Source: a virus (taxonomy: Duplodnaviria > Caudoviricetes). Taken from it: DNA of 58,166 bases. Under the pieces are notes generated by a model. That model saw only the letters and a program-made list of their open reading frames with translations, searched no databases and had not been told where the DNA came from. How positions within the stretch are numbered: the stretch's first letter is position 1; each line of letters starts with the position of its first letter. A program made the position numbers and the translations under genes. The stretch is from positions 1 through 58,166 of IMG/VR virus record IMGVR_UViG_3300010371_000006; one strand, given 5' to 3'. This document shows positions 327-19,827 of this stretch, piece after piece.

Positions 327-761
327 TCAGACCTCGTCGAGTTCGATGTCGTCGAGCTCGTCGTCGGTCTCGTTCATGATCCCGTCGAGATCGGACTCCG
401 AGGGCTCGTCGGCGTCGTCGGCGATCAGCGCCTCCTCGTTGGTGTACTCCTCGTCGAGTTCGGCGATGTCGGCCTCGGTGACCGCGCCCTTGGCGGCCTC
501 GGCGGTCGCCGCCTCGACGGCGGCGGCGATGCGGGCGTTGGCCCGCTCGATCTTGGCGGCCTCCTGCGCGGCGGACCAGCTGGCCCAATTCTTCTTGACC
601 TTCGCGAGCTGCGTCGCGGTCAGCTCGATGTTGTACCGGCCGCCCTTGCCGACCGACTCGATCCCCGAGAGATCGGAGCGCAGGAACTTGCGCAGCTCCT
701 TCGGGTTCGGCGCGCCGATCGCCTCGGTGAGCGTCGCGGTCGTGTACGAAACCTTCGCCAT
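327..761 (-). CDS. HTH-type DNA-binding protein with acidic C-terminal tail
   Basis: PKELRKFLRS...VGKGGRY motif shared with 10835-11434; RBS GAAGGGGA; own promoter. Confidence 0.7.
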   Translation of the reverse strand: MAKVSYTTATLTEAIGAPNPKELRKFLRSDLSGIESVGKGGRYNIELTATQLAKVKKNWASWSAAQEAAKIERANARIAAAVEAATAEAAKGAVTEADIAELDEEYTNEEALIADDADEPSESDLDGIMNETDDELDDIELDEV

Positions 762-5820: not shown

Positions 5821-7899
5821 TCATTCCTGAAACAGGGCCCACTCGCGGCCTTCTTTGACCACGAGGCCGTAGGTGTGGGCTCGCTGGAGGGCGGAGTGGG
5901 CGTTGGAGGGGGCCATGTTGGCCTCGCGGGCGATGTCAGCGCAGCGGTGTGGACCGGGGCCCAGACGGCGAAGGGCGTTGACGACCTTGGGCTTTCGGGC
6001 GTGGGTCCATTGTTTGGGGGTGTTATCGATGACGGTGGTGCGAGCCTTCGGCTGTGTGACCTCCTCTACTCTGGGGTCGTGTATCTGGGCGCCCACGTCG
6101 AGGGTGTGACGGGGCGACCAGGTGCGCTGGGTGGGGTCGGTGACGAACTCCCAGCGGTTGCTGGGGGCTGTCTTCGACTCTAGCTCCATGGCGAAACCGT
6201 GTTCGCGGGCGGTGAGATAGAGTGAGTCCTCCGCCCAGGCGTGAAGCGCCTGAGAGCCGAGCAGGCGGGTGCCGCCGCGTACCTCGCCCTCGGGCTTGCC
6301 CTTGTTGAAGTGGTGGACGAGCATGATCGTGGTGTCCTCGCGCTTGGCGATACGCGTGAGGGGGTCGAGGATGGTGTTCATCATCTCGCCCATGTGGTTG
6401 ATGTCTGCGCCGCCCATGCCGCGCATGAGGGTGTCTATCAGCACCAGGGCGAACTTCGACTTGCTGCCGTCGCTGTGGGTGACCCCCTCGCGTATGCGCT
6501 GATGTATCATGGCGATGCAGTCGGGGTCGCTCAGGTTCACCCGCTGGTTGTGCACCAGCGTCAGCGGTATGCCCATGGTGTGGGAGGCTTTCGGCGCCCA
6601 GTCGAGACCACCTGAGCTGTTGCGCACGAGGCCCACACCGTCGAACTTAGTCTTCGACTCCCAGATCTGCCTCATACGAGCGCTGAAGAGATACTGACCG
6701 TCCTCGAGTACGAAGTACAGCACGGGGCCTGCGCTCATCACCGAGAACTTGTCGAGGAAGGGTGCGTTGTAGCCTCGGCTCGTGGCGGCGATGGACATGG
6801 CGAGATCCAGTGCCACCCAGCTCTTGCGAGCCTTCGGCTCGCCGCCGATGAATCCCACACTGCCGCGAACCAGCATGTCCTTCACGAGCCACTTCGGCGC
6901 TTTCGCAGTTCGGATGAACTCGTCGGCGGTCATGCCAGCGTAGCTCACCTCCTCGCGCAGTGACTTCTTGCGCTTCTTCCAGGCCGAGGTCGCCTGGTTG
7001 CCCAGGTCCTCGATCTCGGTCGGCCGCCCCTTGAACTTATTCCATCGTGTGGGACGAATGACCGCGACTATCTCTGCGACGGTGCAGCCCACGTCTGCCA
7101 GGCATCGCATGAAGTAGAACATCGGACGGCTACGATCTTCGCCGTCTTCAGGCCCCTTCTCCATACGCGCAAGCGCTGCGGGCGGCATATCATGCCTCAC
7201 CCGATTCAGAACCCGCTCAGCTTCGATGCTATCGACCTGGTCGAACAGCTCAGCGTCGATCGGCACCTCTTCCGAGAGGTTAGGAATCTCAGGCAGAGCG
7301 TTGAAATCCTCGGCCTGGTAGTAGGGGCCGGGCTTCTTATCCCCCCACAGCAGGCGGCCTTTCGGAAACTCCCCGTCGACCTCATACTGTGATTTGTGGT
7401 TGACCCACCCCGGCAACCTGAGCAGCTGGGTGGTGTCCCACCCACTGGGGTCGGCGTCGACCAGGTAGGTCATGCGATGGTTGTCCGCCCCCTTACGAGA
7501 GGCGCCGTAGAGATCCTCAGCCTCAGGATCCTCGAGCAACCACAGCGCCTGATATCTGCCCGGCGAAGTCTCCCACGCTACGGTCGGCCTCCACTGAGGG
7601 TCGATCTGCCGAGGGTCAGCCTCGTCGAGATCCGCCCACAGGCAGTACTCTTCCTGCGCGTAGGGCACCCGGCGCTGATCCTCGCTGAAGAGCATCGGAC
7701 ACCAGTAGAGGTCGTGATCCTCGTGAGCCACCATGTGGTCGAGGACCTCAAGGCGATCGGTCGGCCAGTAGAACGACTTGGTGTGGAACGTGCGGTTGCT
7801 GCCTTCCACCCAGGGAAAGAAGCAATAACCTTCGTTGTCATCCGACCCCCATGCCTGCGATATAATCGCCAGTATGCGGTCGGCTTCGTTAATCATCAT
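5821..7899 (-). CDS. DNA primase-helicase (RepB-like primase, RecA-family AAA_25-like helicase, C-terminal HTH)
   Basis: LWADLD, WETSPGRYQALW and LLRLPG primase motifs; Walker A GEPKARKS; Walker B LVLIDT; VHHFNK and RLLGS motifs. Confidence 0.88.
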   Translation of the reverse strand: MMINEADRILAIISQAWGSDDNEGYCFFPWVEGSNRTFHTKSFYWPTDRLEVLDHMVAHEDHDLYWCPMLFSEDQRRVPYAQEEYCLWADLDEADPRQIDPQWRPTVAWETSPGRYQALWLLEDPEAEDLYGASRKGADNHRMTYLVDADPSGWDTTQLLRLPGWVNHKSQYEVDGEFPKGRLLWGDKKPGPYYQAEDFNALPEIPNLSEEVPIDAELFDQVDSIEAERVLNRVRHDMPPAALARMEKGPEDGEDRSRPMFYFMRCLADVGCTVAEIVAVIRPTRWNKFKGRPTEIEDLGNQATSAWKKRKKSLREEVSYAGMTADEFIRTAKAPKWLVKDMLVRGSVGFIGGEPKARKSWVALDLAMSIAATSRGYNAPFLDKFSVMSAGPVLYFVLEDGQYLFSARMRQIWESKTKFDGVGLVRNSSGGLDWAPKASHTMGIPLTLVHNQRVNLSDPDCIAMIHQRIREGVTHSDGSKSKFALVLIDTLMRGMGGADINHMGEMMNTILDPLTRIAKREDTTIMLVHHFNKGKPEGEVRGGTRLLGSQALHAWAEDSLYLTAREHGFAMELESKTAPSNRWEFVTDPTQRTWSPRHTLDVGAQIHDPRVEEVTQPKARTTVIDNTPKQWTHARKPKVVNALRRLGPGPHRCADIAREANMAPSNAHSALQRAHTYGLVVKEGREWALFQE

Positions 7900-7973
7900 G
7901 TTAGCGATAATATCATCATCATGAACGGGGATTCAATACCGGCGCCAACTGAGAAGCCGATCATCCAGGATAG

Positions 7974-8003
7974 TTGACCAACCGCGCGGCGAAGCGATAT
8001 ACT
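7974..8003 (+). promoter_or_regulatory. SigA-type promoter
   Basis: TTGACC-N18-TATACT. Confidence 0.7.
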
Positions 8004-8033
8004 GGTAGCACGCAATCGATTGAAGGGGCGCAC

Positions 8034-8459
8034 ATGGCAGACTTTGAGCCCAAGACCTGGGTGGTGGCGAGGGACACACCGACACTGCTCGGTGTTGGAC
8101 GGGTCATAGACACGCCATCGTACTCCTCGCCCCGCCTGACCTGGGCTGAGTTCGGGCCGCGAGGCAGCAAGACCACTTCGGCCTTCGAGCCTGGTGAGCT
8201 GATGCCGTACGGTGAGTGGATCGCCACTCATAACCACCAGACGCCTCGAGTCGGGATCATCTACGACAAGGTCGTGATGCCCGACACCGATATGCCGTGC
8301 ACCCACATCGACATCCCAGGCCCGAGACAGCCCCATATGGCCGTCTCGCTCGATCGATTGCGCGAGATGATCGACCAGGAAGAGTTCACTGAAACGCACA
8401 GAATTGGGAGGTCTAGGCATGAACAAGCGACAGATGATCAAGGCTGCGCAAGAGCTTAA
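8034..8459 (+). CDS. Hypothetical protein
   Basis: ATG after RBS GAAGGGG, downstream of the promoter. Confidence 0.6.
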   Translation: MADFEPKTWVVARDTPTLLGVGRVIDTPSYSSPRLTWAEFGPRGSKTTSAFEPGELMPYGEWIATHNHQTPRVGIIYDKVVMPDTDMPCTHIDIPGPRQPHMAVSLDRLREMIDQEEFTETHRIGRSRHEQATDDQGCARA

Positions 8460-8670
8460 GGAGACGTTCAACCCCCTGACCGACCCGGCGAGTCAGGGCG
8501 ACGACGTCATGCTGACCGTCGAGATGGCGGCCAAGATCGTGGCAGTCGCCGAGCGGTACCTGCTCGTCCAGTCGATCATCGACAACAACACCCGGCGCAA
8601 GCCCAAGAAGTCGACTGCCCACTTCGCCGGCACCGCCAACTGCGGTCCGGACTGCTGCGAAGCCCGCTGA
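8419..8670 (+). CDS. Hypothetical protein
   Basis: RBS GGGAGG; GC3-biased codons. Confidence 0.65.
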   Translation: MNKRQMIKAAQELKETFNPLTDPASQGDDVMLTVEMAAKIVAVAERYLLVQSIIDNNTRRKPKKSTAHFAGTANCGPDCCEAR

Positions 8671-8679
8671 GAGAGTTAC

Positions 8680-9201
8680 ATGATTCCGCTGCCCGAGCTC
8701 CTCAAGAACGACAAGACGTACGCCAAGTTCTTCCGCACAGTACCGCCGTTGTACCCGATACAGGTTGAGAAGGGCCGCGAACCCTGGCGGCTGTGGGTCA
8801 AGATGACCCCTGATGGTCCTTGGAGGAAGAAGAATGTCGGTCTCTACTCCGCCGCGGTGGGATACGTTCTCGATCGGATCGACGACGTATACGACGCGGC
8901 TGTCCAGTCACGGTCTCGATCGTATGGCCCGCCTGATCGTCTCATCCGCCTTACGCAGGGAGGAAAGCCGATTCCGGGGCCAGAAGGTGTGCGCCGCACT
9001 ACCTGGCGACCCGCCCCAGAGCTCATACGGGAGTACGGCCCACACGACTGGTGCTACCAGTGCCGCCGGCCGACCGAGTTCGGGTACTACGCAGACCATC
9101 CCGCTTTTCGGGGCACTCTCCTTGAAGGCTTTGCTTCGAACGCTGTTCGTCGTTGCGCTCTGTGCGGCATCAGCCACACTTTCATTCGTTCTTCCCGCTG
9201 A
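8680..9201 (+). CDS. Hypothetical protein with two CxxC motifs
   Basis: WCYQCRRPT...RRCALCG. Confidence 0.7.
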   Translation: MIPLPELLKNDKTYAKFFRTVPPLYPIQVEKGREPWRLWVKMTPDGPWRKKNVGLYSAAVGYVLDRIDDVYDAAVQSRSRSYGPPDRLIRLTQGGKPIPGPEGVRRTTWRPAPELIREYGPHDWCYQCRRPTEFGYYADHPAFRGTLLEGFASNAVRRCALCGISHTFIRSSR

Positions 9202-9215
9202 GATAAGGGGCAACC

Positions 9216-9437
9216 ATGTCCGCAGAGGTATCGTCCGACGTGCAGTGCGACGACTCGCCTACGGGGTTGCACGAGTGGATGGCTATATCCATACAGCACG
9301 GCGTCATAGTCGGTGTGGACAGCACGGGCGCCCCCGTTTTCATCCCGGACGACACTGCGGAATACGGGCTCGATTCCCCGTCCTTGGCCGTGCCGGCTTA
9401 TGGGTGCGCACACTGCAGCGCGCCCTGGGCAGCCTGA
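9216..9437 (+). CDS. Hypothetical protein
   Basis: RBS AAGGGG; C...HEW...CAHC. Confidence 0.6.
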   Translation: MSAEVSSDVQCDDSPTGLHEWMAISIQHGVIVGVDSTGAPVFIPDDTAEYGLDSPSLAVPAYGCAHCSAPWAA

Positions 9438-9454
9438 TCGATCACCAGCTCGCC

Positions 9455-9483
9455 TTGACAAGGCAGCGCTGGGATAGTATACT
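9455..9483 (+). promoter_or_regulatory. SigA-type promoter
   Basis: TTGACA-N17-TATACT. Confidence 0.8.
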
Positions 9484-9515
9484 GCTTAGCGAACTGCCCC
9501 CCATTTTTGGAGACG

Positions 9516-9878
9516 ATGATGACGCACCCCTCCATACCCCTCGAGAAGACGCCGACCTTCGCGTCGATGCTCACCGACCCCAGGTTCGCGGAGATCGCTC
9601 GGGAGCTCTTGGACAACCCTCGCCCGCCGGCCGGCGACCCGTACAATGGGTCCTCTCACTCGGTCTACCTGCGACGTCACACGGGGCTGGACAACTGCCC
9701 CATCTGCCAGCCGATTTCACTCAGCTTCGAGCTGACCAACCCGCGCCCCCCGCGCGACGACCGGCACCTGGCTATCTGCGCCGTGCCGGCGACCGACCCC
9801 TCCCGCCTCGAGCCGGTGAAGACACACAACAAGAAGCCGGGTACCCCCCGCCGCCGTTCAACGAAGGTGTCCCGCTGA
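9516..9878 (+). CDS. Hypothetical protein
   Basis: Follows the promoter; H...CPIC. Confidence 0.6.
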   Translation: MMTHPSIPLEKTPTFASMLTDPRFAEIARELLDNPRPPAGDPYNGSSHSVYLRRHTGLDNCPICQPISLSFELTNPRPPRDDRHLAICAVPATDPSRLEPVKTHNKKPGTPRRRSTKVSR

Positions 9879-9879
9879 C

Positions 9880-10293
9880 ATGGCGCCCACCGGTACCCTT
9901 CGAGGCATCATCATCCCGGCGAACCCCGGCGACACGCTGATCGAGATCACGATCGACGGCGGCTACAGCGCCTGGCTGGAACGCATGGCGGATCGCATCG
10001 CCTACGGAGACATGATCGAGATGGTCCACTCCACTAAGCTGTGCGAGTTGTTGCGCAAGCCGTGGTACAACCACATTCTCTCGATGGTGGTCCACGAAGA
10101 CGGGCATAAGGTAGGGTTGGCCGTCAACCCCCGGGCCACCATCTTCTACCCTCACTACCCGGGCATCGCCGGCGACGCCATGATCATCGGCGAGGACCGC
10201 AGTGACCCCTACGAGGGCGCTTGGCCAGAGACGCTGCCCGACTATATCACAGTCGGTCGGCTCAACGAATACATCCACCACAACTCCCGCTAG
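9880..10293 (+). CDS. Hypothetical protein (DUF3846-like)
   Basis: VHEDG..GLAVNPRAT...IAGDAMIIG pattern. Confidence 0.6.
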   Translation: MAPTGTLRGIIIPANPGDTLIEITIDGGYSAWLERMADRIAYGDMIEMVHSTKLCELLRKPWYNHILSMVVHEDGHKVGLAVNPRATIFYPHYPGIAGDAMIIGEDRSDPYEGAWPETLPDYITVGRLNEYIHHNSR

Positions 10294-10305
10294 GATATCA
10301 CGCAG

Positions 10306-10533
10306 TTGAGCCTCTTTCTTAAGGGGATCGTCGAGTTCGGCCTCTCTCTCGGGGTCGGACTCGGCGTTCCTGTCGGCCTCTTCATCTACCTCGGCATGGT
10401 CACTGAGCAGTGGCTTGAGAACCGCAAAGCTCTCCGCATACGGAAGAACTCCACCCGCCGCCCCCCATCCATCTCGGGCAACACTGAGCCGATACCCATG
10501 GTTATCCCCGACGGTGTGGAGCACGAGCTGTGA
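10306..10533 (+). CDS. Putative membrane protein
   Basis: Hydrophobic N-terminus followed by basic residues. Confidence 0.5.
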   Translation: MSLFLKGIVEFGLSLGVGLGVPVGLFIYLGMVTEQWLENRKALRIRKNSTRRPPSISGNTEPIPMVIPDGVEHEL

Positions 10534-10769
10534 CCGTCAACATCCCCCGACCCACACTTGAGGCTCAGCCTTTCAAGTCCCTAGTAGTCAACGCGCTTGA
10601 GCCTCTCACTGGCATGCAGTGCGCCCAATGCGGCGAGCCCATCGTCGCCTGTGGATTCGACTGCGCCTTCCACGGCTACCTGCATAGCGAAGGGCCTCGC
10701 CGCGGCAGCCATAAATGTGGCGATATCAACGGCGACCGGACCGTAGTCAACGCATCTCTCCTGCCTTGA
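10530..10769 (+). CDS. Hypothetical Cys/His-rich protein
   Basis: CAQCGEPI...YLH...HKC; GTGA overlap. Confidence 0.6.
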   Translation: MTVNIPRPTLEAQPFKSLVVNALEPLTGMQCAQCGEPIVACGFDCAFHGYLHSEGPRRGSHKCGDINGDRTVVNASLLP

Positions 10770-10796
10770 CAAACCTTAATTGCCTGGTGATATATT
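10766..10796 (+). promoter_or_regulatory. SigA-type promoter (long spacer)
   Basis: TTGACA-N19-TATATT with a TG extension. Confidence 0.55.
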
Positions 10797-10834
10797 GGTA
10801 AACGACGCATCAAATCACACAGGCAACAGGAGGC

Positions 10835-11434
10835 ATGATGGGCACGTCCCTCTCGACGGGTGAGATAGCCGCATCCTTCGGCACCACCGCTCGTATTCTT
10901 CGAAAGTTCTTGCGATCGCCGCAGTCTCCATTCGAAGCAGTCGGTCAGGGGGCCCGGTACAACATCGGGACCGAAGACCTCGACGACCTCAAGGTGAAGT
11001 TCGAGGCCTGGGCCACTCGGCCCGGGTCTCGCTCCACTTCGACGGCGACGGATGAAGAACCCTCGAAGGCGGCTAAGCGATCGAAGGCGGTGCCCCAGCG
11101 ACGCAACCCGCTCGACGAGGACGACCTCCAGACCCGACTCAGCGGCTCCATTTTGGATCGCCGGCGAGCTCATGGCATGACCTGCAACTTCAGCTGGAAG
11201 CATTCGAAGGTGGCGGGCCTCGACATAAGCTGCAAGCACGACACCCACAACGGTACTAGGTTCTGCATCATGCACCAGCAGATCACCTTCTGCGGCGATC
11301 TCGACACTCCCCAGCCGGGCTACTGCGGTCCGGGCCCATACCCCAAGCCCTTCTGCAAGTGGCACAACGGGGAGATAAGCGAGGAGGAACTCGAAGCTCA
11401 TCTCGCCCTACCGGTCGAGCAGTGGGATAAGTGA
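10835..11434 (+). CDS. HTH DNA-binding protein with C-terminal Cys/His zinc-binding motifs
   Basis: STGEIAASFGTTARILRKFLRS...VGQGARY; FCIMH and FCKWH; RBS AGGAGG. Confidence 0.75.
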   Translation: MMGTSLSTGEIAASFGTTARILRKFLRSPQSPFEAVGQGARYNIGTEDLDDLKVKFEAWATRPGSRSTSTATDEEPSKAAKRSKAVPQRRNPLDEDDLQTRLSGSILDRRRAHGMTCNFSWKHSKVAGLDISCKHDTHNGTRFCIMHQQITFCGDLDTPQPGYCGPGPYPKPFCKWHNGEISEEELEAHLALPVEQWDK

Positions 11435-11470
11435 CCCCATAAACTTCCCTCTTCGTTCAGAGGGACAGAG

Positions 11471-11543
11471 CTGAGCGACTGCCGCTTCCCCTAGGCCGGG
11501 TTAAACCATATCCTCGTACCGCCCGGCGCCGGCAGTCGCTCAG
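11471..11543 (+). ncRNA. Intergenic stem-loop with a C-rich internal loop (candidate sRNA element)
   Basis: 14-bp stem CTGAGCGACTGCCG/CGGCAGTCGCTCAG, inner stem GCCGGG/CCCGGC, bulge CTTCCCCTAG. Confidence 0.45.
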
Positions 11544-11558
11544 TGGTGTGTGGGGAGG

Positions 11559-11587
11559 TTGACAAACCCGCACATCGTTGGTATACT
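11559..11587 (+). promoter_or_regulatory. SigA-type promoter, leaderless
   Basis: TTGACA-N17-TATACT; ATG follows 6 nt later at 11594. Confidence 0.8.
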
Positions 11588-11593
11588 GGGGCT

Positions 11594-11863
11594 ATGCAGA
11601 ATTACACCAAGCGAAAGCTCATGGAGCTGCTCGAGAAGCTGCCCGAGGATGCGATGATCGCCTTCGTGGCTGCGCACGACATGGAGTCGGGCGACATATT
11701 CATCCCCCTGGGTGAGTACGACCCCGACCACCCGAGCTCCGACTGCTTCTACATCGCGGCGGGTGACCCGGACGAAGCCGAGCTCGGCGAAGTCAGTGCC
11801 ACTCCGATCCCGGACTACGATGACGGCATGAGCAACTTCATGCCCGACCGGGAGGAGCCGTGA
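11594..11863 (+). CDS. Hypothetical acidic protein
   Basis: Leaderless start; TKRKLMELLEKLPEDA N-terminus. Confidence 0.7.
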   Translation: MQNYTKRKLMELLEKLPEDAMIAFVAAHDMESGDIFIPLGEYDPDHPSSDCFYIAAGDPDEAELGEVSATPIPDYDDGMSNFMPDREEP

Positions 11864-12102
11864 CTGAGAACGCCGAGAATGCCGCGCAGGCCGCGCTGAG
11901 GCTGGACAGGATGATCGACAACACCGTCGATGACCAGGGCACTATTAACGCCCAGGACATCATGGACATCGAGACGATCATCTACCGCCTGAGGATGCTC
12001 GAGTCCGCCCTTCAGTTCGGCATCGTCACCATCGGAGGAGGTTCGCCGGGCATCAACATCCCTCCCGGCGAGTACACGCTCGTACCAGTGGTCAGGAGTT
12101 AG
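11860..12102 (+). CDS. Hypothetical protein
   Basis: GTGA overlap; RBS GGAGGAG. Confidence 0.65.
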   Translation: MTENAENAAQAALRLDRMIDNTVDDQGTINAQDIMDIETIIYRLRMLESALQFGIVTIGGGSPGINIPPGEYTLVPVVRS

Positions 12103-12103
12103 C

Positions 12104-12322
12104 GTGAGACTCTGGCTCGGACTCGGGGAACGACTTGGACCCTTCTGGGCCGGAGTCACTCTCCTCTCCACACGCAGGCACAGCAGCATCGAAGACTGGC
12201 CCGACCCCCGAGTGCCAGCGAAGATCAACCCCTGGGCCATGACCTGCGCTGGGGTATTCGTGTTGATCGGGGTGGCTGTAGCCACTACCCTCTTCGTAGC
12301 TTTTCTTGTCCTTCTGCTCTAA
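12104..12322 (+). CDS. Putative membrane protein
   Basis: C-terminal hydrophobic helix; RBS AGGAG. Confidence 0.55.
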   Translation: MRLWLGLGERLGPFWAGVTLLSTRRHSSIEDWPDPRVPAKINPWAMTCAGVFVLIGVAVATTLFVAFLVLLL

Positions 12323-12326
12323 GCTA

Positions 12327-12355
12327 TTGACACCTTGGCGCAGAGATGGCATCAT
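12327..12355 (+). promoter_or_regulatory. Promoter for the tRNA/ncRNA cluster
   Basis: TTGACA-N17-CATCAT with a TG extension. Confidence 0.7.
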
Positions 12356-12443
12356 CTAATCATCGCACCCGACGAACGACCCCTTCGGTACATCGGCTGC
12401 GATTGCTCCCTTACCTTCTCCCCCCCGAGGCGAGGGAGTACAA

Positions 12444-12517
12444 TGCGGGATAGAGCAGCTAGGTAGCTCGCCAGACCCATACTCTGGAGGTCGCAGGTTC
12501 AAATCCTGCTCCCGCTA
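12444..12517 (+). tRNA. tRNA-Met(CAT), initiator-like with an atypical anticodon arm
   Basis: Cloverleaf: acceptor TGCGGGA/TCCCGCT, D stem GAGC/GCTC, anticodon arm CCAGA-CCCATAC-TCTGG, T arm GCAGG-TTCAAAT-CCTGC. Confidence 0.85.
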
Positions 12518-12520
12518 CAA

Positions 12521-12586
12521 GGAACTCCTATCGGCGATGAGCTTGGTCCCACCACCTTACTCATCCACGGAACCGGTAGGAGTTCC
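12521..12586 (+). ncRNA. Long stem-loop directly after the tRNA
   Basis: GGAACTCCTATCGG/CCGGTAGGAGTTCC with inner stem GATGAG/CTCATC. Confidence 0.5.
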
Positions 12587-12601
12587 GTTCCATGTTACCC
12601 C

Positions 12602-12673
12602 TAGGGCCATCAGGACGCTGACATATGGGAAAGCCGGCAGGCGAGCGGTTCGAATCCGCGAGGCCCACTACCA
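12602..12673 (+). ncRNA. tRNA-like element (T arm, acceptor-like stem, CCA; no canonical D or anticodon arm)
   Basis: GCGG-TTCGAAT-CCGC; GGGCC/GGCCC; ends in ACCA. Confidence 0.45.
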
Positions 12674-12724
12674 TCAGGAGCCTGATGAGCGAGATCTAAC
12701 CTTGCGTCTACACTACCAGGCCAT

Positions 12725-12753
12725 TTGACGGACCTGTACCTGGCCCCTATAGT
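12725..12753 (+). promoter_or_regulatory. SigA-type promoter
   Basis: TTGACG-N17-TATAGT. Confidence 0.75.
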
Positions 12754-12952
12754 TATCTTATCGCCCCTACGCAGGGGGCCGAACTAGGAGGGGCGCCATG
12801 AACGGTACCTCTGCCGGCATAATATCGCCTGCCAACGGCGCGAAGGTCGTGAGGAGCCCGTTGGCAGGGACGACCACCACTCTCACGACGGCCCCATAGG
12901 GGTTACTGCCACCTCCCCGTACGGTCTGCAGCAACTTCATGAGGGTGACACC

Positions 12953-13114
12953 ATGAGCGCCAAGGACTACGTTCCTCCGCCGGGTTACCGGCCCCCGTTT
13001 CCCCCGCACGCCCCGGCTCCTGACGACAGCGATTGTCCCCACGACAAGGAAGTCGTCCTAGCCGGTCGACGCATCTGCCAGGCTGGCTGTAGCAGGGACC
13101 TCGGTCCCGCCTAG
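12953..13114 (+). CDS. Small Pro-rich, Cys/His protein (53 aa, below the ORF-track cutoff)
   Basis: MSAKDYVPPPGYRPPFPPHAPAPDDSDCPHDKEVVLAGRRICQAGCSRDLGPA; RBS GAGGGTG. Confidence 0.5.
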   Translation: MSAKDYVPPPGYRPPFPPHAPAPDDSDCPHDKEVVLAGRRICQAGCSRDLGPA

Positions 13115-13228
13115 CCCCTCTATCCTCGGTGGTACTCCCCCTCGGCCGCCGATGAACACTGCCTCCCGCTCCTCGCGCCCCGCCCCGGGCGGGAGGCAGT
13201 AGGCCGGATGAGCACCGGAAGCCCGGCC

Positions 13229-13268
13229 CCAGAAGACCCTCCCACTCTGCTCAGGGAGGGTCTTTTGG
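13229..13268 (+). terminator. Intrinsic terminator
   Basis: CCAGAAGACCCTCCC-loop-GGGAGGGTCTTTTGG. Confidence 0.7.
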
Positions 13269-13290
13269 CGTGGTCGTGCCATTAGCCGCC

Positions 13291-13319
13291 TTGACAAACC
13301 CACACCCGGCCCATATACT
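13291..13319 (+). promoter_or_regulatory. SigA-type promoter
   Basis: TTGACA-N17-TATACT. Confidence 0.8.
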
Positions 13320-13364
13320 TTACTCATCGCCCCCCGTCGGGGGGCACGACACCTAGGGGATGGT

Positions 13365-13553
13365 ATGAGCACGAAGCTGACCACCAAGCTGATGGGGCTC
13401 CACAAGTACCTGGCGCCGAGCGCCGGCGACATACAGTCCGGCCGCTGCCAGCCCTACCCCTTCGAGCAGTTCCAGCGCGAGTGGGCCGAGCTCAGCCCCC
13501 ACGCCAAGAACCAGCTCACCACCGGCATCAACTCGCTGGCCTTCACCTACTGA
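13365..13553 (+). CDS. Hypothetical protein (monocistronic)
   Basis: Own promoter, RBS AGGGGA and terminator. Confidence 0.75.
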   Translation: MSTKLTTKLMGLHKYLAPSAGDIQSGRCQPYPFEQFQREWAELSPHAKNQLTTGINSLAFTY

Positions 13554-13561
13554 CCCACATT

Positions 13562-13603
13562 CCAGGAGCCCCTGCCTACTCTTCCCAGGCAGGGGCTCTT
13601 TGG
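13562..13603 (+). terminator. Intrinsic terminator
   Basis: GAGCCCCTGCCT/AGGCAGGGGCTC followed by TTT. Confidence 0.7.
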
Positions 13604-13717
13604 CGTGTCGCATCGATCAAAGCTCCTAGTGTCTTCTCTAAGCGAAGGGCATATAGCGCGCGACTCATTTATCGCACCGCTATATGCCCAAGCTTCAGGA
13701 ATGCTTCCCAGCAATCC

Positions 13718-14044
13718 CTAGGCCTTCTTTTTGTGCGATGCGCGCATCGATGCGCGCATGCCCTCGACGGCCGAGACGGCTTCATCGACCGTGCAGACCA
13801 CGACGCACACACCGCCAGCCTTGCGGATCTGGTCGTGCATATGGGCCTGCTTCGCAGACACGTTGTCTATCGTCTGAGGTGTCTTGACCTCCAGACCGAG
13901 AAATGCCCCGTCCACGCAAGCGATCAGATCAGGCAGGCCTGCCGGCATGAGCGCGCTACCATGCACCTTGAAGACGAACACCCCCAGCTTACGCAGCTCC
14001 TTTTGTATGTTGGCCTGTATTCGCCCCTCGGGTGTGGAACCCAT
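13718..14044 (-). CDS. VRR-NUC nuclease (Holliday junction resolvase-like)
   Basis: E..IQ, GLPDL, LEVK and KQ motifs. Confidence 0.9.
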   Translation of the reverse strand: MGSTPEGRIQANIQKELRKLGVFVFKVHGSALMPAGLPDLIACVDGAFLGLEVKTPQTIDNVSAKQAHMHDQIRKAGGVCVVVCTVDEAVSAVEGMRASMRASHKKKA

Positions 14045-14086
14045 ATTCTCACCGTCTCTTCTTGGCCTTCATCTATTCAAACAACA

Positions 14087-14137
14087 GTAAGACCGCCGGC
14101 TGACGCACCCCAGGCAAAGGAGTACCGGCGGTCTTAC
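14087..14137 (-). terminator. Stem-loop/terminator
   Basis: GTAAGACCGCCGG/CCGGCGGTCTTAC followed by TGTTGTTT on the minus strand. Confidence 0.6.
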
Positions 14138-14184
14138 CGGAGAACTAGCACCACCCACAGGCGCTTTATCTCTGCTGCCAAGTC

Positions 14185-14214
14185 ATTATCTCATCGAGAT
14201 CAACGGCTTGTCAA
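14185..14214 (-). promoter_or_regulatory. SigA-type promoter
   Basis: TTGACA-N18-GATAAT. Confidence 0.65.
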
Positions 14215-14220
14215 CATGTC

Positions 14221-14937
14221 CTACAGGTCGTCCAGGTCCAGGTCCTCAAGGTCGTCGTCGGTGACCGTGCGCTGAGCCGACGGCTTCTTCTTGGAGGCTG
14301 CCTTCTTGGCCGGCCGCTTCGGAGGCTCGGGCTCTTCCTCCTCGTCCTCCGGCTCCTCCTCGTCCTCCTCCGGCTCGGGCTCGGGCTGACGCTTGGCAGA
14401 CCGCTTCTTGGCCGGCGGCGGAGTGGGCTCCTCGTCCTCCTCTTCCTCCTCGTCGTCGTCCTCAGTGGTCTCGTCCTCCGGCTCCTCCTCGTCTTCGTCC
14501 TCGTCGTCGTCGACCTCCTGGCCGCTGGTCACCTCGGAGGCGGGGATGGTGTACTGCACCTCGGACTGCAGCCGGCCGTTGTACTCGGTGTCCTGCAGCG
14601 TCACGCCGATGGTGCGGCCGACGATCTTGTTGGGGTCGAGGGCGACCCGCTTCTTGGGTATGACAGTGCCGGCGGCCGCGAAGAGCTGGCGCAGCTTCCA
14701 CAGCGAGTTCTCTTCGAGCTTGCAGTAGACCGGGTAGGTGCCGACCTGGCTGACGCCCTTGGTCGTGACCTTGACTTCGATCGTGTACAGGTACATCGGC
14801 GTCTTGTCCTTGGCGACGACGTCCTGGACGTCCTTGATCCTCGCCAGGTAGTCGCCCTCACGGAGGCGCAGCTTGTTGAACTGACCGCCCCCGTCCTTCA
14901 CGTTCGTGAAGTCGACTGTCTGCTTCTTGGCAGGCAT
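14221..14937 (-). CDS. ssDNA-binding protein (DUF669-like) with acidic tail
   Basis: LREGDYLARI...LWKLRQLFAA...YNGR; long Asp/Glu tail; sits next to a Sak4-like ATPase. Confidence 0.75.
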   Translation of the reverse strand: MPAKKQTVDFTNVKDGGGQFNKLRLREGDYLARIKDVQDVVAKDKTPMYLYTIEVKVTTKGVSQVGTYPVYCKLEENSLWKLRQLFAAAGTVIPKKRVALDPNKIVGRTIGVTLQDTEYNGRLQSEVQYTIPASEVTSGQEVDDDEDEDEEEPEDETTEDDDEEEEEDEEPTPPPAKKRSAKRQPEPEPEEDEEEPEDEEEEPEPPKRPAKKAASKKKPSAQRTVTDDDLEDLDLDDL

Positions 14938-17086: not shown

Positions 17087-19609
17087 CTAGGCAACCAACC
17101 CCATCTTGTCGAGGGTCGTGAAGTTGTAGATCTGGTCTTCGGTGAGCTCCTTCGAGTCGCCCCAGTGCCGCCCGACCTTGACGTCGGCGATGATCGGGAT
17201 GTCCATCTCAAGGCCGAAGAGTCGGTGCATGTTGTCCATATCCTGCATGGACTCCTTCAGCAGAACCATCGCTTCGCCGGCGATCTCATCATCTGCCTCG
17301 ATGTTGATCGCGTCGTGCACGAGCCCGAGCACTGCGACTCGGTCTTGAAGATCTCTCTCCTCGAGCCGCTGGTTGAAGAGATTCATGCCGGCGAGTGCCA
17401 TATCGGAGGCGAGCCCCTGCACAGGCGAGTTGATCGCCTGTCGCTCAGCCTCTGCACGAACCCCCGCCTCAGGCGAGTAGATGTCGGGCAGGTGTCGGAT
17501 TCGCCCGATGGGCGACTGCACCCGGCCGTTGGCGGCGACCAATCGGCGCTGACGGTTGTGCCAAGATTCGAGATCAGGATAGAGATCGAAGTACGCCTTA
17601 CGGTATTGCTGAGCCTCGTACTCAGTGAACTTGACCCCATAGTTGTTGAACGCGGTGATGATGAACTTTCGCCAGCCCATCCCATAGAGGAAGCCGAAGT
17701 TCACTGGCTTGGCCTTCTTGCGTTCTTCCTTCGTGACGTGCTTCTCGCTCTTGCCCGTCATGCGCATGGCGGTGACCATGTGAATGTCTGCGCCCTGGCG
17801 GTAGAGCGACATCATCATGCGCTCACGGGCTATGAACGCAGCGACCCTAAGCTCGATCTGAGAGAAGTCAGCTTCGATCCATGTTCTGCCAGGAGTCGCT
17901 CCGAAGAGACCACGAATAAACGGGTCTCTTGGTACCTGCTGGAGATTGAGTCCGCGCAGCGCAGAAGTTCTGCCACTGAGCTTTGAAGCATCTTCCTTAC
18001 CGCTACTAAGCCGCCCGGTGACAGTGCCGGCCAACTTGAACGAGGTGTGGACATGGTGGGTGTCATCATAGAGCGTCGAATACGGGCCGAAGAACGACGA
18101 CATGGCCTTCTGCCATTCGATGCGAGCCAGCATACTCGGCACGACAGGGTGTGGATTTGGCACGTCGTTGAGTAGGAGTAGAACTCCCTCAGCCATGCTT
18201 GGATCGCCGGGCCGGCCATCAGGTTTCTCTTTACCTCGAGCCAGTACAGGTAGCCCGAGATGTTCGAAGAGGAGCCACTTGGAGAAGATTGAAGCGTTGA
18301 GATTAACCTCCACCTTCTTGCCAGCTTTGTTCCTCGGCCACGTTTCGATGTCGGCGTCGGGAATGTGCAGCCTGACCTGGCTCTCGATCTCGTCGAGCTT
18401 AGCCTGGGCGATCGGGGTGCGTTCGCGTAGCCTCTCGACGTCAATCCAGACACCATGACCCTCCGCGGTCGTGAGATTGTTGCTCGCCGGCATCATCAAC
18501 TTCATGAAGATACGCAGCAGGCGAGGCTGGGCGATCAGCTCTTCGCGGAGCTGGAGATAGATCAAGTAGCCGTAGTAAGTGTCGAGGAAGTTGTACTCGA
18601 GCACCTCATCTATCGCCATCTCCAAGAGGTTCTTCGTGTCGACGCCCCATGGTGCGACGCCAAGACGCATCTGCCCCTGGGGCTTGAGGCCTTTCTGCAC
18701 ATTCTCATCGAGTAGATGCACAGCAAGCATGGTGTCGAATGATAGTTCAAGTTTGACCCCGGTGAATCTTCGGAGCCACCTGCAGTCGAACTTACCGTTG
18801 TGAGCGATGCGAATCTTGATCTTCGCCATGATGGGTACGATATGGCGGAGCACGGATCGCCAGGTAGTACGCCAGGGTGACTCAGGGTGGAAGAGTGGCA
18901 GTTTGAATCCGAGCAGCTCGCCGTCGACCATATAGGTTCCACACATCGAGATGATGCGCGCGCTCGGGTCGAACTCTTGCAGTGGGACGATGTTGGTCTC
19001 GATGTCGAAGTAGATCAGTGAGGCCTTCTTGAGTCGGCCCATGAGCTGTGAGAGATCACGCTTCGACTCGATCACCTTGGCGGGGATGATCTCGACCTGA
19101 TCTGCCTGCTGCCCACTCACAAGTGTGGAGAAGAACTTCAGATCGGCCTGGTAGCTGGGCCGGTTCTGAGGTCGAGCGAGCACCGCTGAGGGGGATATCG
19201 TCGGAAAGACTATGTATCCGTCCTTCTCAACAGGGCGGCCTCGATACTTGGTGATGCCGCTGTGACCCGTTGTCGACAGTAGCGCCTCGTTGCCCAGTGA
19301 GAGGATGTACTTGGGCTTGACCTGAGCTATCTCGGCTTCAAGATACTGTCGGCAGGCCTTCACATCCGAGTTACTCGCGTTGGCGTCGAAGTTCCGGCAC
19401 TTCAGCGCGGTTGACCACCAGACCCGCCTCAGGTCCACCCCAGCCTGCGCGAGGTCTTCCTCGAGCGCATCCTGATAGCGTTTGGAGTTTGGCATCTTCG
19501 ACACCACCATGATGTCGGCCTGCTTCGGTCCGAAGCCCGGCTCGCAGACTTCGTCCATCCCGCGATGAAGCTTGCAGGCGGTGCAACTGGAATTGTAGAT
19601 CATCTGCAC
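17087..19609 (-). CDS. Family A DNA polymerase with N-terminal UDG family 4-like domain and 3'-5' exonuclease
   Basis: FDIET, AHNGKFD and YNFLD (exonuclease); TGRLSS, NLQQVP, ADFSQIELR, RKKAKPVNFGFLYG and VHDA (polymerase); N-terminal CTAC...KC...AC. Confidence 0.95.
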   Translation of the reverse strand: MQMIYNSSCTACKLHRGMDEVCEPGFGPKQADIMVVSKMPNSKRYQDALEEDLAQAGVDLRRVWWSTALKCRNFDANASNSDVKACRQYLEAEIAQVKPKYILSLGNEALLSTTGHSGITKYRGRPVEKDGYIVFPTISPSAVLARPQNRPSYQADLKFFSTLVSGQQADQVEIIPAKVIESKRDLSQLMGRLKKASLIYFDIETNIVPLQEFDPSARIISMCGTYMVDGELLGFKLPLFHPESPWRTTWRSVLRHIVPIMAKIKIRIAHNGKFDCRWLRRFTGVKLELSFDTMLAVHLLDENVQKGLKPQGQMRLGVAPWGVDTKNLLEMAIDEVLEYNFLDTYYGYLIYLQLREELIAQPRLLRIFMKLMMPASNNLTTAEGHGVWIDVERLRERTPIAQAKLDEIESQVRLHIPDADIETWPRNKAGKKVEVNLNASIFSKWLLFEHLGLPVLARGKEKPDGRPGDPSMAEGVLLLLNDVPNPHPVVPSMLARIEWQKAMSSFFGPYSTLYDDTHHVHTSFKLAGTVTGRLSSGKEDASKLSGRTSALRGLNLQQVPRDPFIRGLFGATPGRTWIEADFSQIELRVAAFIARERMMMSLYRQGADIHMVTAMRMTGKSEKHVTKEERKKAKPVNFGFLYGMGWRKFIITAFNNYGVKFTEYEAQQYRKAYFDLYPDLESWHNRQRRLVAANGRVQSPIGRIRHLPDIYSPEAGVRAEAERQAINSPVQGLASDMALAGMNLFNQRLEERDLQDRVAVLGLVHDAINIEADDEIAGEAMVLLKESMQDMDNMHRLFGLEMDIPIIADVKVGRHWGDSKELTEDQIYNFTTLDKMGLVA

Positions 19610-19827
19610 CATTCGCACTTTCTATGTGTGTGGCTGTGTTTCTCTTGACCCTCGGGATGAGTGTGGGCGAAATAGCCCCCACACCTGGCGAGATGCTCGT
19701 GCCAGTTCGGTCCGAACTTCTCGCCAGGAAAGAGGCCTACCAACTTCTCTCGGTCGCCCGACCACTCATCAACACCGTAGCCCTTGTCAGGAGCTATGTC
19801 GGGCGCCTTAGTGCCACGATCTTTCAT
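19600..19827 (-). CDS. Hypothetical protein
   Basis: ATGA-coupled to the deaminase gene. Confidence 0.5.
   Translation of the reverse strand: MKDRGTKAPDIAPDKGYGVDEWSGDREKLVGLFPGEKFGPNWHEHLARCGGYFAHTHPEGQEKHSHTHRKCEWCR

Follow-up and report, generated by a model that had tools for sequence, protein, structure and literature searches.

Among the described small RNAs that act through exposed C-rich loops are RsaE/RoxS and RNAIII of Firmicutes, which pair with Shine-Dalgarno regions. Among phages, T4 carries the small RNAs RNAC and RNAD in its tRNA gene cluster, where they are cut from a tRNA precursor; we know of no C-rich loops in these two RNAs. The actinobacterial 6C small RNA (sRNA; Rfam RF01066, B11 in mycobacteria) consists of a pair of neighbouring hairpins, both GC-rich and with C-rich apical loops, an architecture that it shares with the phage RNA described here. 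As reported for 6C, these loops bind G-rich ribosome-binding sites (RBSs) such as that of panD, and translation is repressed without the help of a chaperone (PMC6486639). RNAC and RNAD are described as phage-encoded, small and stable, with a function that is still called unknown (PMC9697503), and mycobacteriophages L5, D29 and StarStuff are reported to produce abundant, stable small non-coding RNAs from the Pleft promoter that are toxic to the host when cloned and whose function is likewise given as unknown (PMC5712189). Regulatory RNAs of phages infecting Actinobacteria are almost unknown, and the terms ‘Actinobacteria’, ‘Gram-positive’, ‘C-rich’ and ‘tRNA’ are absent from the text of a 2025 review of phage-derived sRNAs (PMC12197685). 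In the literature we found no description of a phage-encoded 6C-like RNA, nor of an RNase P/tRNA route that sets the 3′ end of a phage sRNA. Here we describe positions 12362-12443 of the soil virus record IMGVR_UViG_3300010371_000006, a complete record of 58,166 bp (GC ~60%) that was analysed as a whole and is called the window below. This stretch probably encodes a 6C-like phage RNA linked to a tRNA, with a mechanism that we infer below.

A predicted two-hairpin RNA with C-rich loops resembles 6C

An earlier note on this DNA had read positions 11471-13228 as an island of hairpin RNAs, a promoter-driven sRNA array whose C-rich loops would silence mRNAs with G-rich RBSs. All seven C-rich motifs on which it was built are present where it had placed them, and six of its seven hairpins lie in segments that fold far better than their shuffles, with z-scores from -3.9 to -4.95 (among them -3.9 for 11462-11548 and -4.2 for 13115-13205, which holds hairpins 6 and 7; 200 dinucleotide shuffles), while hairpin 5 (12896-12952) gave a z-score of +0.9. 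When the unpaired positions were compared with those of 300 dinucleotide shuffles, C was enriched in one of seven segments, 12362-12443, which corresponds to hairpins 2 and 3 of that note and in which the unpaired C fraction is 0.61 compared with 0.43 in the shuffles, a value reached by 0/300. Segment 13115-13205 was marginal (17/300) and the other five were not enriched (45-243/300). The array was thus not supported, the other hairpins being structures of untranslated regions (UTRs) or terminators without C-enrichment beyond shuffles and, in one case, without a significant fold. Of the stretches that the note took to be promoter-driven and non-coding, 11471-11543 belongs to the 3′ UTR of the gene before it and not to a promoter-driven RNA, and the one following promoter P3 holds a conserved 53-aa open reading frame (ORF).

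The RNA predicted from 12362-12443 is made of hairpins H1 and H2 (Table 1). H1 carries a 20-nt loop (12373-12392) that contains CCCUUCGGU, and H2 an 11-nt loop (12417-12427) that contains a run of seven C residues (C7); folding of the whole segment gave a z-score of -4.3 against 200 dinucleotide shuffles. The C7 of loop 2 is the only one on the plus strand of the window, and the 9-mer of loop 1 occurs once with both strands counted. In a permissive scan, the Rfam 6C model (RF01066) matched 12362-12444 over its full length with 24.4 bits (cut-off 47; E 0.013 for the genome), which was the only 6C match in the whole genome (16 candidates), and the first base of the alignment is the predicted start of promoter P2, 7 nt past the -10 hexamer. 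For comparison, the same pipeline scored 6C of Gordonia soli at 77.3 bits and the best of Microbacterium at 39.1 (Microbacterium humicola) and 27 bits, and the H2 loop of the phage, UCUCCCCCCCG, resembles the second loop of the real 6C RNAs from Gordonia soli and Microbacterium humicola. A coding reading of the region was rejected, since the ORFs crossing it have a flat codon-position GC (0.55-0.61, compared with a third-position GC (GC3) of 0.68-0.98 in nearby real genes) and a 165-aa ORF of a related record, G002, is not conserved in the window.

Loop motifs are kept and stems diverge in the only relative with the island

Related records in IMG/VR and the JGI metagenomes were only three, here called G001, G002 and G003. 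The DNA polymerase as query retrieved G001 and G002 only (66 and 80% polymerase identity to the window, respectively); an alignment of the 199-aa neighbour protein retrieved these two plus G003, a distant low-GC phage; a scan of metagenomes recovered G001 and G002 again, along with a single fragment of 2.4 kb; and the single proteins adjoining the island, used as queries, found no relatives in viral contigs. G002 is the only relative with the island, and in G001 the first leaderless gene is followed directly by a P4-type promoter.

The earlier note had named conservation of the loops across relatives as a check, and in G002 the two-hairpin structure and the loop sequence are both kept. The hexamers and spacing of P2 are identical in the two phages, and a syntenic 6C match was obtained in G002 (23.2 bits, E 0.019); in parallel, searching four other actinophage records (Shrew, Huwbert, Zuko and G001) with the 6C model gave no match even at E<=10. 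The hairpins were compared gaplessly by coordinate, as MAFFT/RNAalifold on the separate hairpins misaligned the stems. H2 is 37 nt long with an 11-nt loop in both phages; of its 13 stem positions five have changed on both sides and are still paired, three have changed on one side, four are identical and one is unpaired in the window. In H1, counting outward from the loop, 7/9 stem positions have changed on both sides with pairing kept. The results also showed that CCCUUCGGU occupies the same place in a loop 1 of 20 or 21 nt in both phages, and that C7 is kept in loop 2. Variable stems around fixed loops would be the pattern expected of an RNA that pairs through its loops.

H2 lacks a U-tail in both phages, being followed by CAA and then a tRNA in the window, and by a 14-nt linker and then a tRNA-like element in G002; both copies end in ACAA immediately 5′ of the tRNA or tRNA-like element. 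The order in G002 is two-hairpin RNA, tRNA-like element and long hairpin, the last two being swapped relative to the window. Since P2 and the RNA persist in G002, where there is no functional tRNA, tRNA supply would not be the sole purpose of the transcript, which argues that the two-hairpin RNA, and perhaps the long hairpin too, is selected for itself.

Loop 1 is complementary to ribosome-binding sites of early genes

The G-run RBSs reported in the earlier note are all in place, namely CGAAGGGGA before the ATGs at 761, 56449 and 57230, GAGGGGA before 55962 and CTAGGGGA before 13365; the genes starting at 761, 55962, 56449 and 57230 are all on the minus strand. Its claim that the loops are complementary to such sites was assessed on the -25 to -1 regions of 83 gene starts, and for loop 1 it stood. 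The 8-mers of loop 1 have exact complements in 5/83 upstream regions of the window, where the mean of shuffled loops was 0.37 and 0/2000 reached 5; in G002 the count was likewise 5/83 (shuffled mean 0.72; 7/2000 reached 5). Loop 1 is the exact complement of CGAAGGGG RBSs; the sites used are CGAAGGGG-A for three early genes of the window and CGAAGGG-A for three early genes of G002. In the sole orthologous early gene (52% identity), CGAAGGGG stands opposite CCCCUUCG in the window and AAACCGAAGGGA opposite UCCCUUCGGUUU in G002, giving duplexes of 8 and 12 bp, respectively, in which a G-to-A change of the site is matched by a C-to-U change of the loop.

Other elements of the P2 operon

The earlier note had overlooked the tRNA-Met and the tRNA-like element of this operon (Table 1). 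The tRNA-Met begins 3 nt past H2 in the window, and no tRNA was found at that place in G002. Its first acceptor pair is marked as non-standard by cmscan (U opposite U), its D stem has A11:U24, and a C precedes the anticodon in place of U33, a residue that is nearly universal in tRNAs. A mismatched 1:72 pair together with A11:U24 is reminiscent of the bacterial initiator tRNA, but the anticodon stem lacks the three G:C pairs of the initiator.

In the conserved long hairpin (HP-L), GAUGAR/YUCAUC forms an inner stem that is conserved, as are the unpaired CCACGGAAC on the 3′ side and a tail, GUUCCAUGUU, at 12587-12596. In G002 the same architecture is found with a different outer-stem sequence and a different apical loop, and the apical motif CCCACCACC, to which the earlier note had drawn attention, is thus not a kept feature. 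A pattern scan of viral loci with the motifs of HP-L returned G002 as the sole match, and an Rfam F6 match to the hairpin of G002 (24.6 bits) was set aside as reflecting a long GC-rich hairpin only. In both copies (window 12521-12596; G002 7775-7855) the unpaired GGAAC of the 3′ bulge is complementary to a GUUCC just past the hairpin, both being conserved, and therefore two alternative folds are possible. Additionally, a U-rich tract follows HP-L in G002. HP-L may be a terminator/anti-terminator switch.

The degenerate tRNA-like element has a consensus fold with G002 of 13 pairs, two of them compensatory. ARAGORN called no tRNA there in the window or G002, and Rfam gave no tRNA match at E<=10 in the window; the copy of G002 was matched by the tRNA-Sec model only, at 19.8 bits and thus below the cut-off of 47. 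Of the 16 viral loci found in a scan with the tRNA-like motif, 15 are normal genes for tRNA-Glu, Gln or Asn and the remaining one belongs to G002, and an 18-base tRNA-like pattern with 34 bacterial loci was discarded as chance, the T arm being downstream in none of them. The element (window 12604-12673; G002 7705-7771) resembles a tRNA-Glu-type gene minus most of its D and anticodon arms, and in G002 a G and CCA come after the acceptor-like stem. It could act as a signal for processing or as a decoy.

Surroundings of the operon and features of the genome

The features of the island and its neighbourhood are collected in Table 1.

Table 1. Predicted features at positions 11,435-13,553 of the window
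Feature	Position	Strand	Details
Multi-hairpin 3′ UTR after gene 10835-11434	11435-11558	+	main hairpin 11470-11543; unpaired CUUCCCC at 11485-11491
Promoter P1	11559-11587	+	TTGACA-17-TATACT; 11/12 consensus matches
Leaderless three-gene operon of P1	11594-11863, 11860-12102, 12104-12322	+	coding-type GC3 0.68-0.86
Promoter P2 of non-coding operon	12327-12355	+	TTGACA-17-CATCAT; predicted start ~12362
Two-hairpin C-rich-loop RNA (6C-like), 82 nt	12362-12443	+	H1 12362-12403; H2 12404-12440
tRNA-Met, anticodon CAU	12444-12518	+	ARAGORN; Rfam RF00005, 59.9 bits, above the cut-off of 29
Conserved long hairpin (HP-L)	12521-12586	+	z -4.95 (segment 12519-12592)
Degenerate tRNA-like element	12604-12666	+	5-bp acceptor-like stem, small arm with GACG loop, variable middle, T arm with UUCGAAU; then ACUACCA
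Promoter P3	12725-12753	+	mRNA with ORFs 12798-12899 (33 aa, uncertain) and 12953-13114 (53 aa, Cys-rich)
Two 3′-UTR hairpins	13126-13152 and 13158-13200 (span 13123-13200)	+	loop of first ACUCCCCCUCG; z -4.2; C-enrichment marginal, 17/300
Terminator-like hairpin ending P3 transcript	13229-13268	+	15-bp stem, then UUUUGG; z -3.4
Promoter P4	13291-13319	+	drives gene 13365-13553

The multi-hairpin region at 11435-11558 is probably a terminator or 3′-UTR element that is not promoter-driven. Folding of 11435-11560 gave a z-score of -5.8, and the corresponding regions of G002 and G001 gave -4.4 and -4.3; the outer stem of 11470-11543 shows compensating changes between the window and G002, and CTTCCCC is the sole 7-mer common to the 3′-UTR regions of all three, a result reached by 115/5000 shuffles. 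At the other end of the island, directly before P4, G002 has a hairpin with a 9-bp stem and the loop CCUCCCCCC, so that a loop containing CUCCCCC just before P4 is present in both phages. These two observations lend weak backing to the ‘island’; more simply, they can be read as UTR and terminator hairpins.

Sigma-70-like promoters number five in 10,500-14,500, of which four are the plus-strand P1-P4, compared with 0.8 expected from shuffles. At P1 the distance from the -10 hexamer to the ATG is 7-8 nt in all three phages (window, G001 and G002). The predicted transcripts of at least four promoters of the window phage (starts at 12362, ~12760 and ~13326, and the minus-strand leader of gene 761) begin with AUCGC and a 5′-terminal hairpin, and a 12-nt stretch is common to the 5′ part of the sRNA and the leader of gene 761, just upstream of the RBS of that gene; this hints that the sRNA gene may derive from a promoter-leader module. 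The 53-aa protein encoded after P3 has a homologue at a different position in G002. The gene of this Cys-rich protein (window 12953-13114, 53 aa; G002 8489-8626, 45 aa) precedes the P4 gene in the window but follows it in G002, which is, judging from gene order, local gene shuffling.

The window has a direct, exact terminal repeat of 123 bp. On a heuristic gene map based on GC3, most genes are on the minus strand, and the island sits at the end of a plus-strand block (~7,970-13,550). The host is very probably an actinobacterium, since the family-A DNA polymerase shares ~50% identity with the polymerases of phages of Curtobacterium, Microbacterium and Streptomyces; megablast of the window against cultured phages found no near relative. 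The polymerase gene (17087-19618, minus strand) encodes a DNA polymerase I in which an N-terminal uracil-DNA-glycosylase-superfamily domain is fused to the exonuclease and polymerase domains. Positions 762-2115, ~1.35 kb without a convincing gene, have a lower GC (0.49-0.55) and AT-rich tandem repeats near 1296-1322, and may represent a replication origin or have a regulatory role. A hairpin at 2080-2115 was considered as a further C-loop RNA and rejected, as it is the terminator of a minus-strand gene. The 144-aa early protein (327-761, minus strand) and the 199-aa protein (10835-11434, plus strand) share an N-terminal motif, LRKFLRS ... VG.G.RY, and look like paralogues of a small DNA-binding-like domain; a Pfam search of the 199-aa protein found nothing.

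Further searches for the element outside G002 were negative or led to candidates that were dropped. Among 50,697 cultured-phage records searched with blastn, none matched the sRNA region at E<=1, and the rest of the P2 operon matched these records in short tRNA-type stretches only, with none for the long hairpin. A combined pattern of promoter and loop-1 motif hit three loci, namely G002 and two unrelated chance matches. A weak 6C match in G003 (17.4 bits) was dropped because it is apparently coding sequence, G003 being distant and uninformative. Clavibacter phage CN1A was rejected as a relative, having matched through its tRNA-Met alone and having no 6C-like match. That tRNA-Met (KF669650.1, 1503-1579) is called by both ARAGORN and Rfam (69.5 bits) and is unannotated in the public record, where the annotation consists only of a terminator at 1580-1614, which starts at the 3′ end of the tRNA-Met, and of the neighbouring tRNA-Trp.

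A possible mechanism and its alternatives

From the observed anatomy of the RNA gene, its resemblance to 6C, its conservation in one relative and the complementarity of its loop 1 to RBSs, we infer transcription, RNase P processing, target pairing and a translational effect. In our view the best explanation overall, advanced tentatively and with slightly less than half of our credence, is that an RNA of the P2 operon is released from a tRNA precursor and pairs with G-rich leaders in the manner of 6C. P2, a host-type sigma-70-like promoter, would transcribe a non-coding operon whose first product is the ~82-nt two-hairpin RNA, and the 3′ end of this RNA would be made by an RNase P cut at the 5′ end of tRNA-Met, or in G002 at the tRNA-like element. 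RNase P is the likeliest maker of that end because the RNA has no terminator and ends in ACAA directly before the tRNA or tRNA-like fold. Once freed, the RNA would act like actinobacterial 6C, with its single-stranded loops, CCCUUCGG and C7, pairing without a chaperone with G-rich mRNA leaders. The likeliest targets would be the CGAAGGG(G/A)-type RBSs of a subset of early phage genes, and similar host sites may be hit as well, so that the targets may be phage early genes, host genes or both. Such pairing would lower translation.

A bolder form of this proposal would have the RNA as a phage mimic of host 6C that, once released from the tRNA precursor, takes over the host 6C regulon early in infection and damps the phage's own early genes with G-run RBSs; the tRNA-Met, whose mismatched first acceptor pair and purine-11:pyrimidine-24 pair are both reminiscent of initiator tRNA, could in addition favour the leaderless mRNAs of the phage, and the whole would amount to an RNA-only device that redirects translation. 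The mycobacterial 6C regulon includes the replicative helicase dnaB, and over-expression of 6C stops growth. We consider this bolder form improbable.

Several points weigh against 6C-like pairing to RBSs. The element is known from two phages, so that all statements on covariation come from one pairwise comparison, and the stems are so divergent that position-by-position homology is an assumption. The Rfam score of 24.4 bits is about half of the cut-off, and the score of G002 comes almost wholly from H2; in addition, loop 1 has only C4 in the window or C3UC3 in G002, whereas the real 6C RNAs that were folded have C6 or C7 in both loops, and on this count too the phage RNA falls outside the family. 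With respect to targeting, selection of the 83 gene starts relied on their affinity to a Shine-Dalgarno probe, a choice that biases them toward G-rich upstream regions, and two of the three CGAAGGG-type genes are non-orthologous between the window and G002. Loop 2 (C7) had no excess of exact RBS matches compared with shuffles, and for this loop the complementarity proposed earlier was not supported. A duplex scan of the whole genome on both strands had no recognised RBS among the 14 best sites for each loop, GC-rich coding sequence being at the top. The mean duplex energy of loop 1 with the upstream regions was reached by 15/100 shuffled loops in the window and 4/100 in G002, and that of loop 2 by 89/100 and 81/100, respectively. 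Given that the mean energies are better than with random windows but not clearly better than those of shuffled loops, the affinity of the loops for upstream regions is mostly composition. Furthermore, 11/13 non-coding gaps of the first 14 kb are C-rich on the plus strand, regardless of the direction of transcription; part of the C-richness is therefore composition skew, and the C-rich loops elsewhere in the earlier list need no special explanation. Finally, the other transcripts of the phage from P3, P4 and the leader of gene 761 likewise begin with AUCGC and a 5′ hairpin, and H1 may be a generic 5′ stabiliser.

This last point, together with the weak targeting statistics and the position of the RNA directly upstream of tRNA-Met, would fit an explanation in which the two hairpins are a mere structured 5′ leader of the tRNA precursor, protecting its 5′ end or aiding its processing, which is discarded after RNase P cleavage and has no action in trans. 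We consider such a leader unlikely, as the promoter, both hairpins and the loop motifs have survived in G002 despite the loss of the functional tRNA, a mere stabiliser would have no need of a C7 loop or of a conserved 9-nt motif in the other loop, and generic leader hairpins are short with loops of 3-4 nt.

It could also be argued that the hairpins are nothing more than the usual terminators and UTR structures of DNA that is GC-rich and C-skewed, and that their likeness to anti-Shine-Dalgarno sequences is chance. For most of the earlier list this description holds, given the six of seven segments without clear C-enrichment, the failed fold of hairpin 5 and the C-rich plus strand, and hairpins with C5 loops occur at six places of the genome in a strict scan (one that missed both copies of H2). 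As an account of 12362-12443 we regard it as a long shot: there the promoter is conserved, syntenic 6C matches occur in two phages and in 0/4 control phage records, neither C7 nor the 9-mer recurs in the window, and the unpaired C fraction was not attained by any shuffle.

The least probable of the readings weighed here is that the RNA serves to bind a protein, as a decoy or as a platform, for example Rho, which prefers C-rich RNA, or a KH-type RNA-binding protein, and not a base-pairing regulator. The conserved features are indeed exposed C-rich single strands and loop 2 has no excess of complementary RBSs, but the sequence points to no particular partner, loop 1 is specifically complementary to RBSs, and the closest known RNA, 6C, is described as pairing chaperone-free (PMC6486639).

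Comparison with known systems

The C-rich-loop sRNAs of Firmicutes have exposed C-rich loops like the phage RNA, but they belong to an unrelated lineage and have a different architecture, by which description they are set apart. RNAC and RNAD of T4 are small phage RNAs as well, from a phage whose host belongs to a different phylum; they were compared by description only. The RNAs of L5, D29 and StarStuff, also compared by description, are like the RNA of the window in coming from actinophages and from an early promoter; unlike it, they stem from a ~500-bp region at the genome end, and linkage to a tRNA and C-rich loops are not described in the portions of that paper available to us (PMC5712189). 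For the arrangement with a tRNA-like element, plant mitochondrial t-elements offer a parallel, in which, as described, a degenerate tRNA-like fold adjoins another RNA and can define its ends, although these are the ends of organellar mRNAs and not of a phage sRNA (PMC1920247).

The differences from 6C itself are that the phage RNAs score below the 47-bit gathering threshold of the family (24.4 and 23.2 bits) and so are not counted as members, that loop 1 is ~20 nt long with a C-run followed by UUCGG in place of a short C6 loop, and that H2 has no U-rich terminator tail and is followed by a tRNA or tRNA-like element, where the two bacterial 6C RNAs that were folded have U-rich tails (a criterion that is not curated). 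Unlike 6C, moreover, the RNA is encoded by a phage. That it is fused to a tRNA, or to a degenerate tRNA-like fold in the phage that has lost the tRNA, suggests that RNase P sets its 3′ end. Like 6C, the phage RNA has a housekeeping-type promoter and an actinobacterial setting, and its expected action would be that of C-rich loops on G-rich RBSs. If this is true, phages use the chaperone-free pairing of C-rich loops with G-tracts that is found in high-GC bacteria, and do so on their own early genes or on genes of the host.

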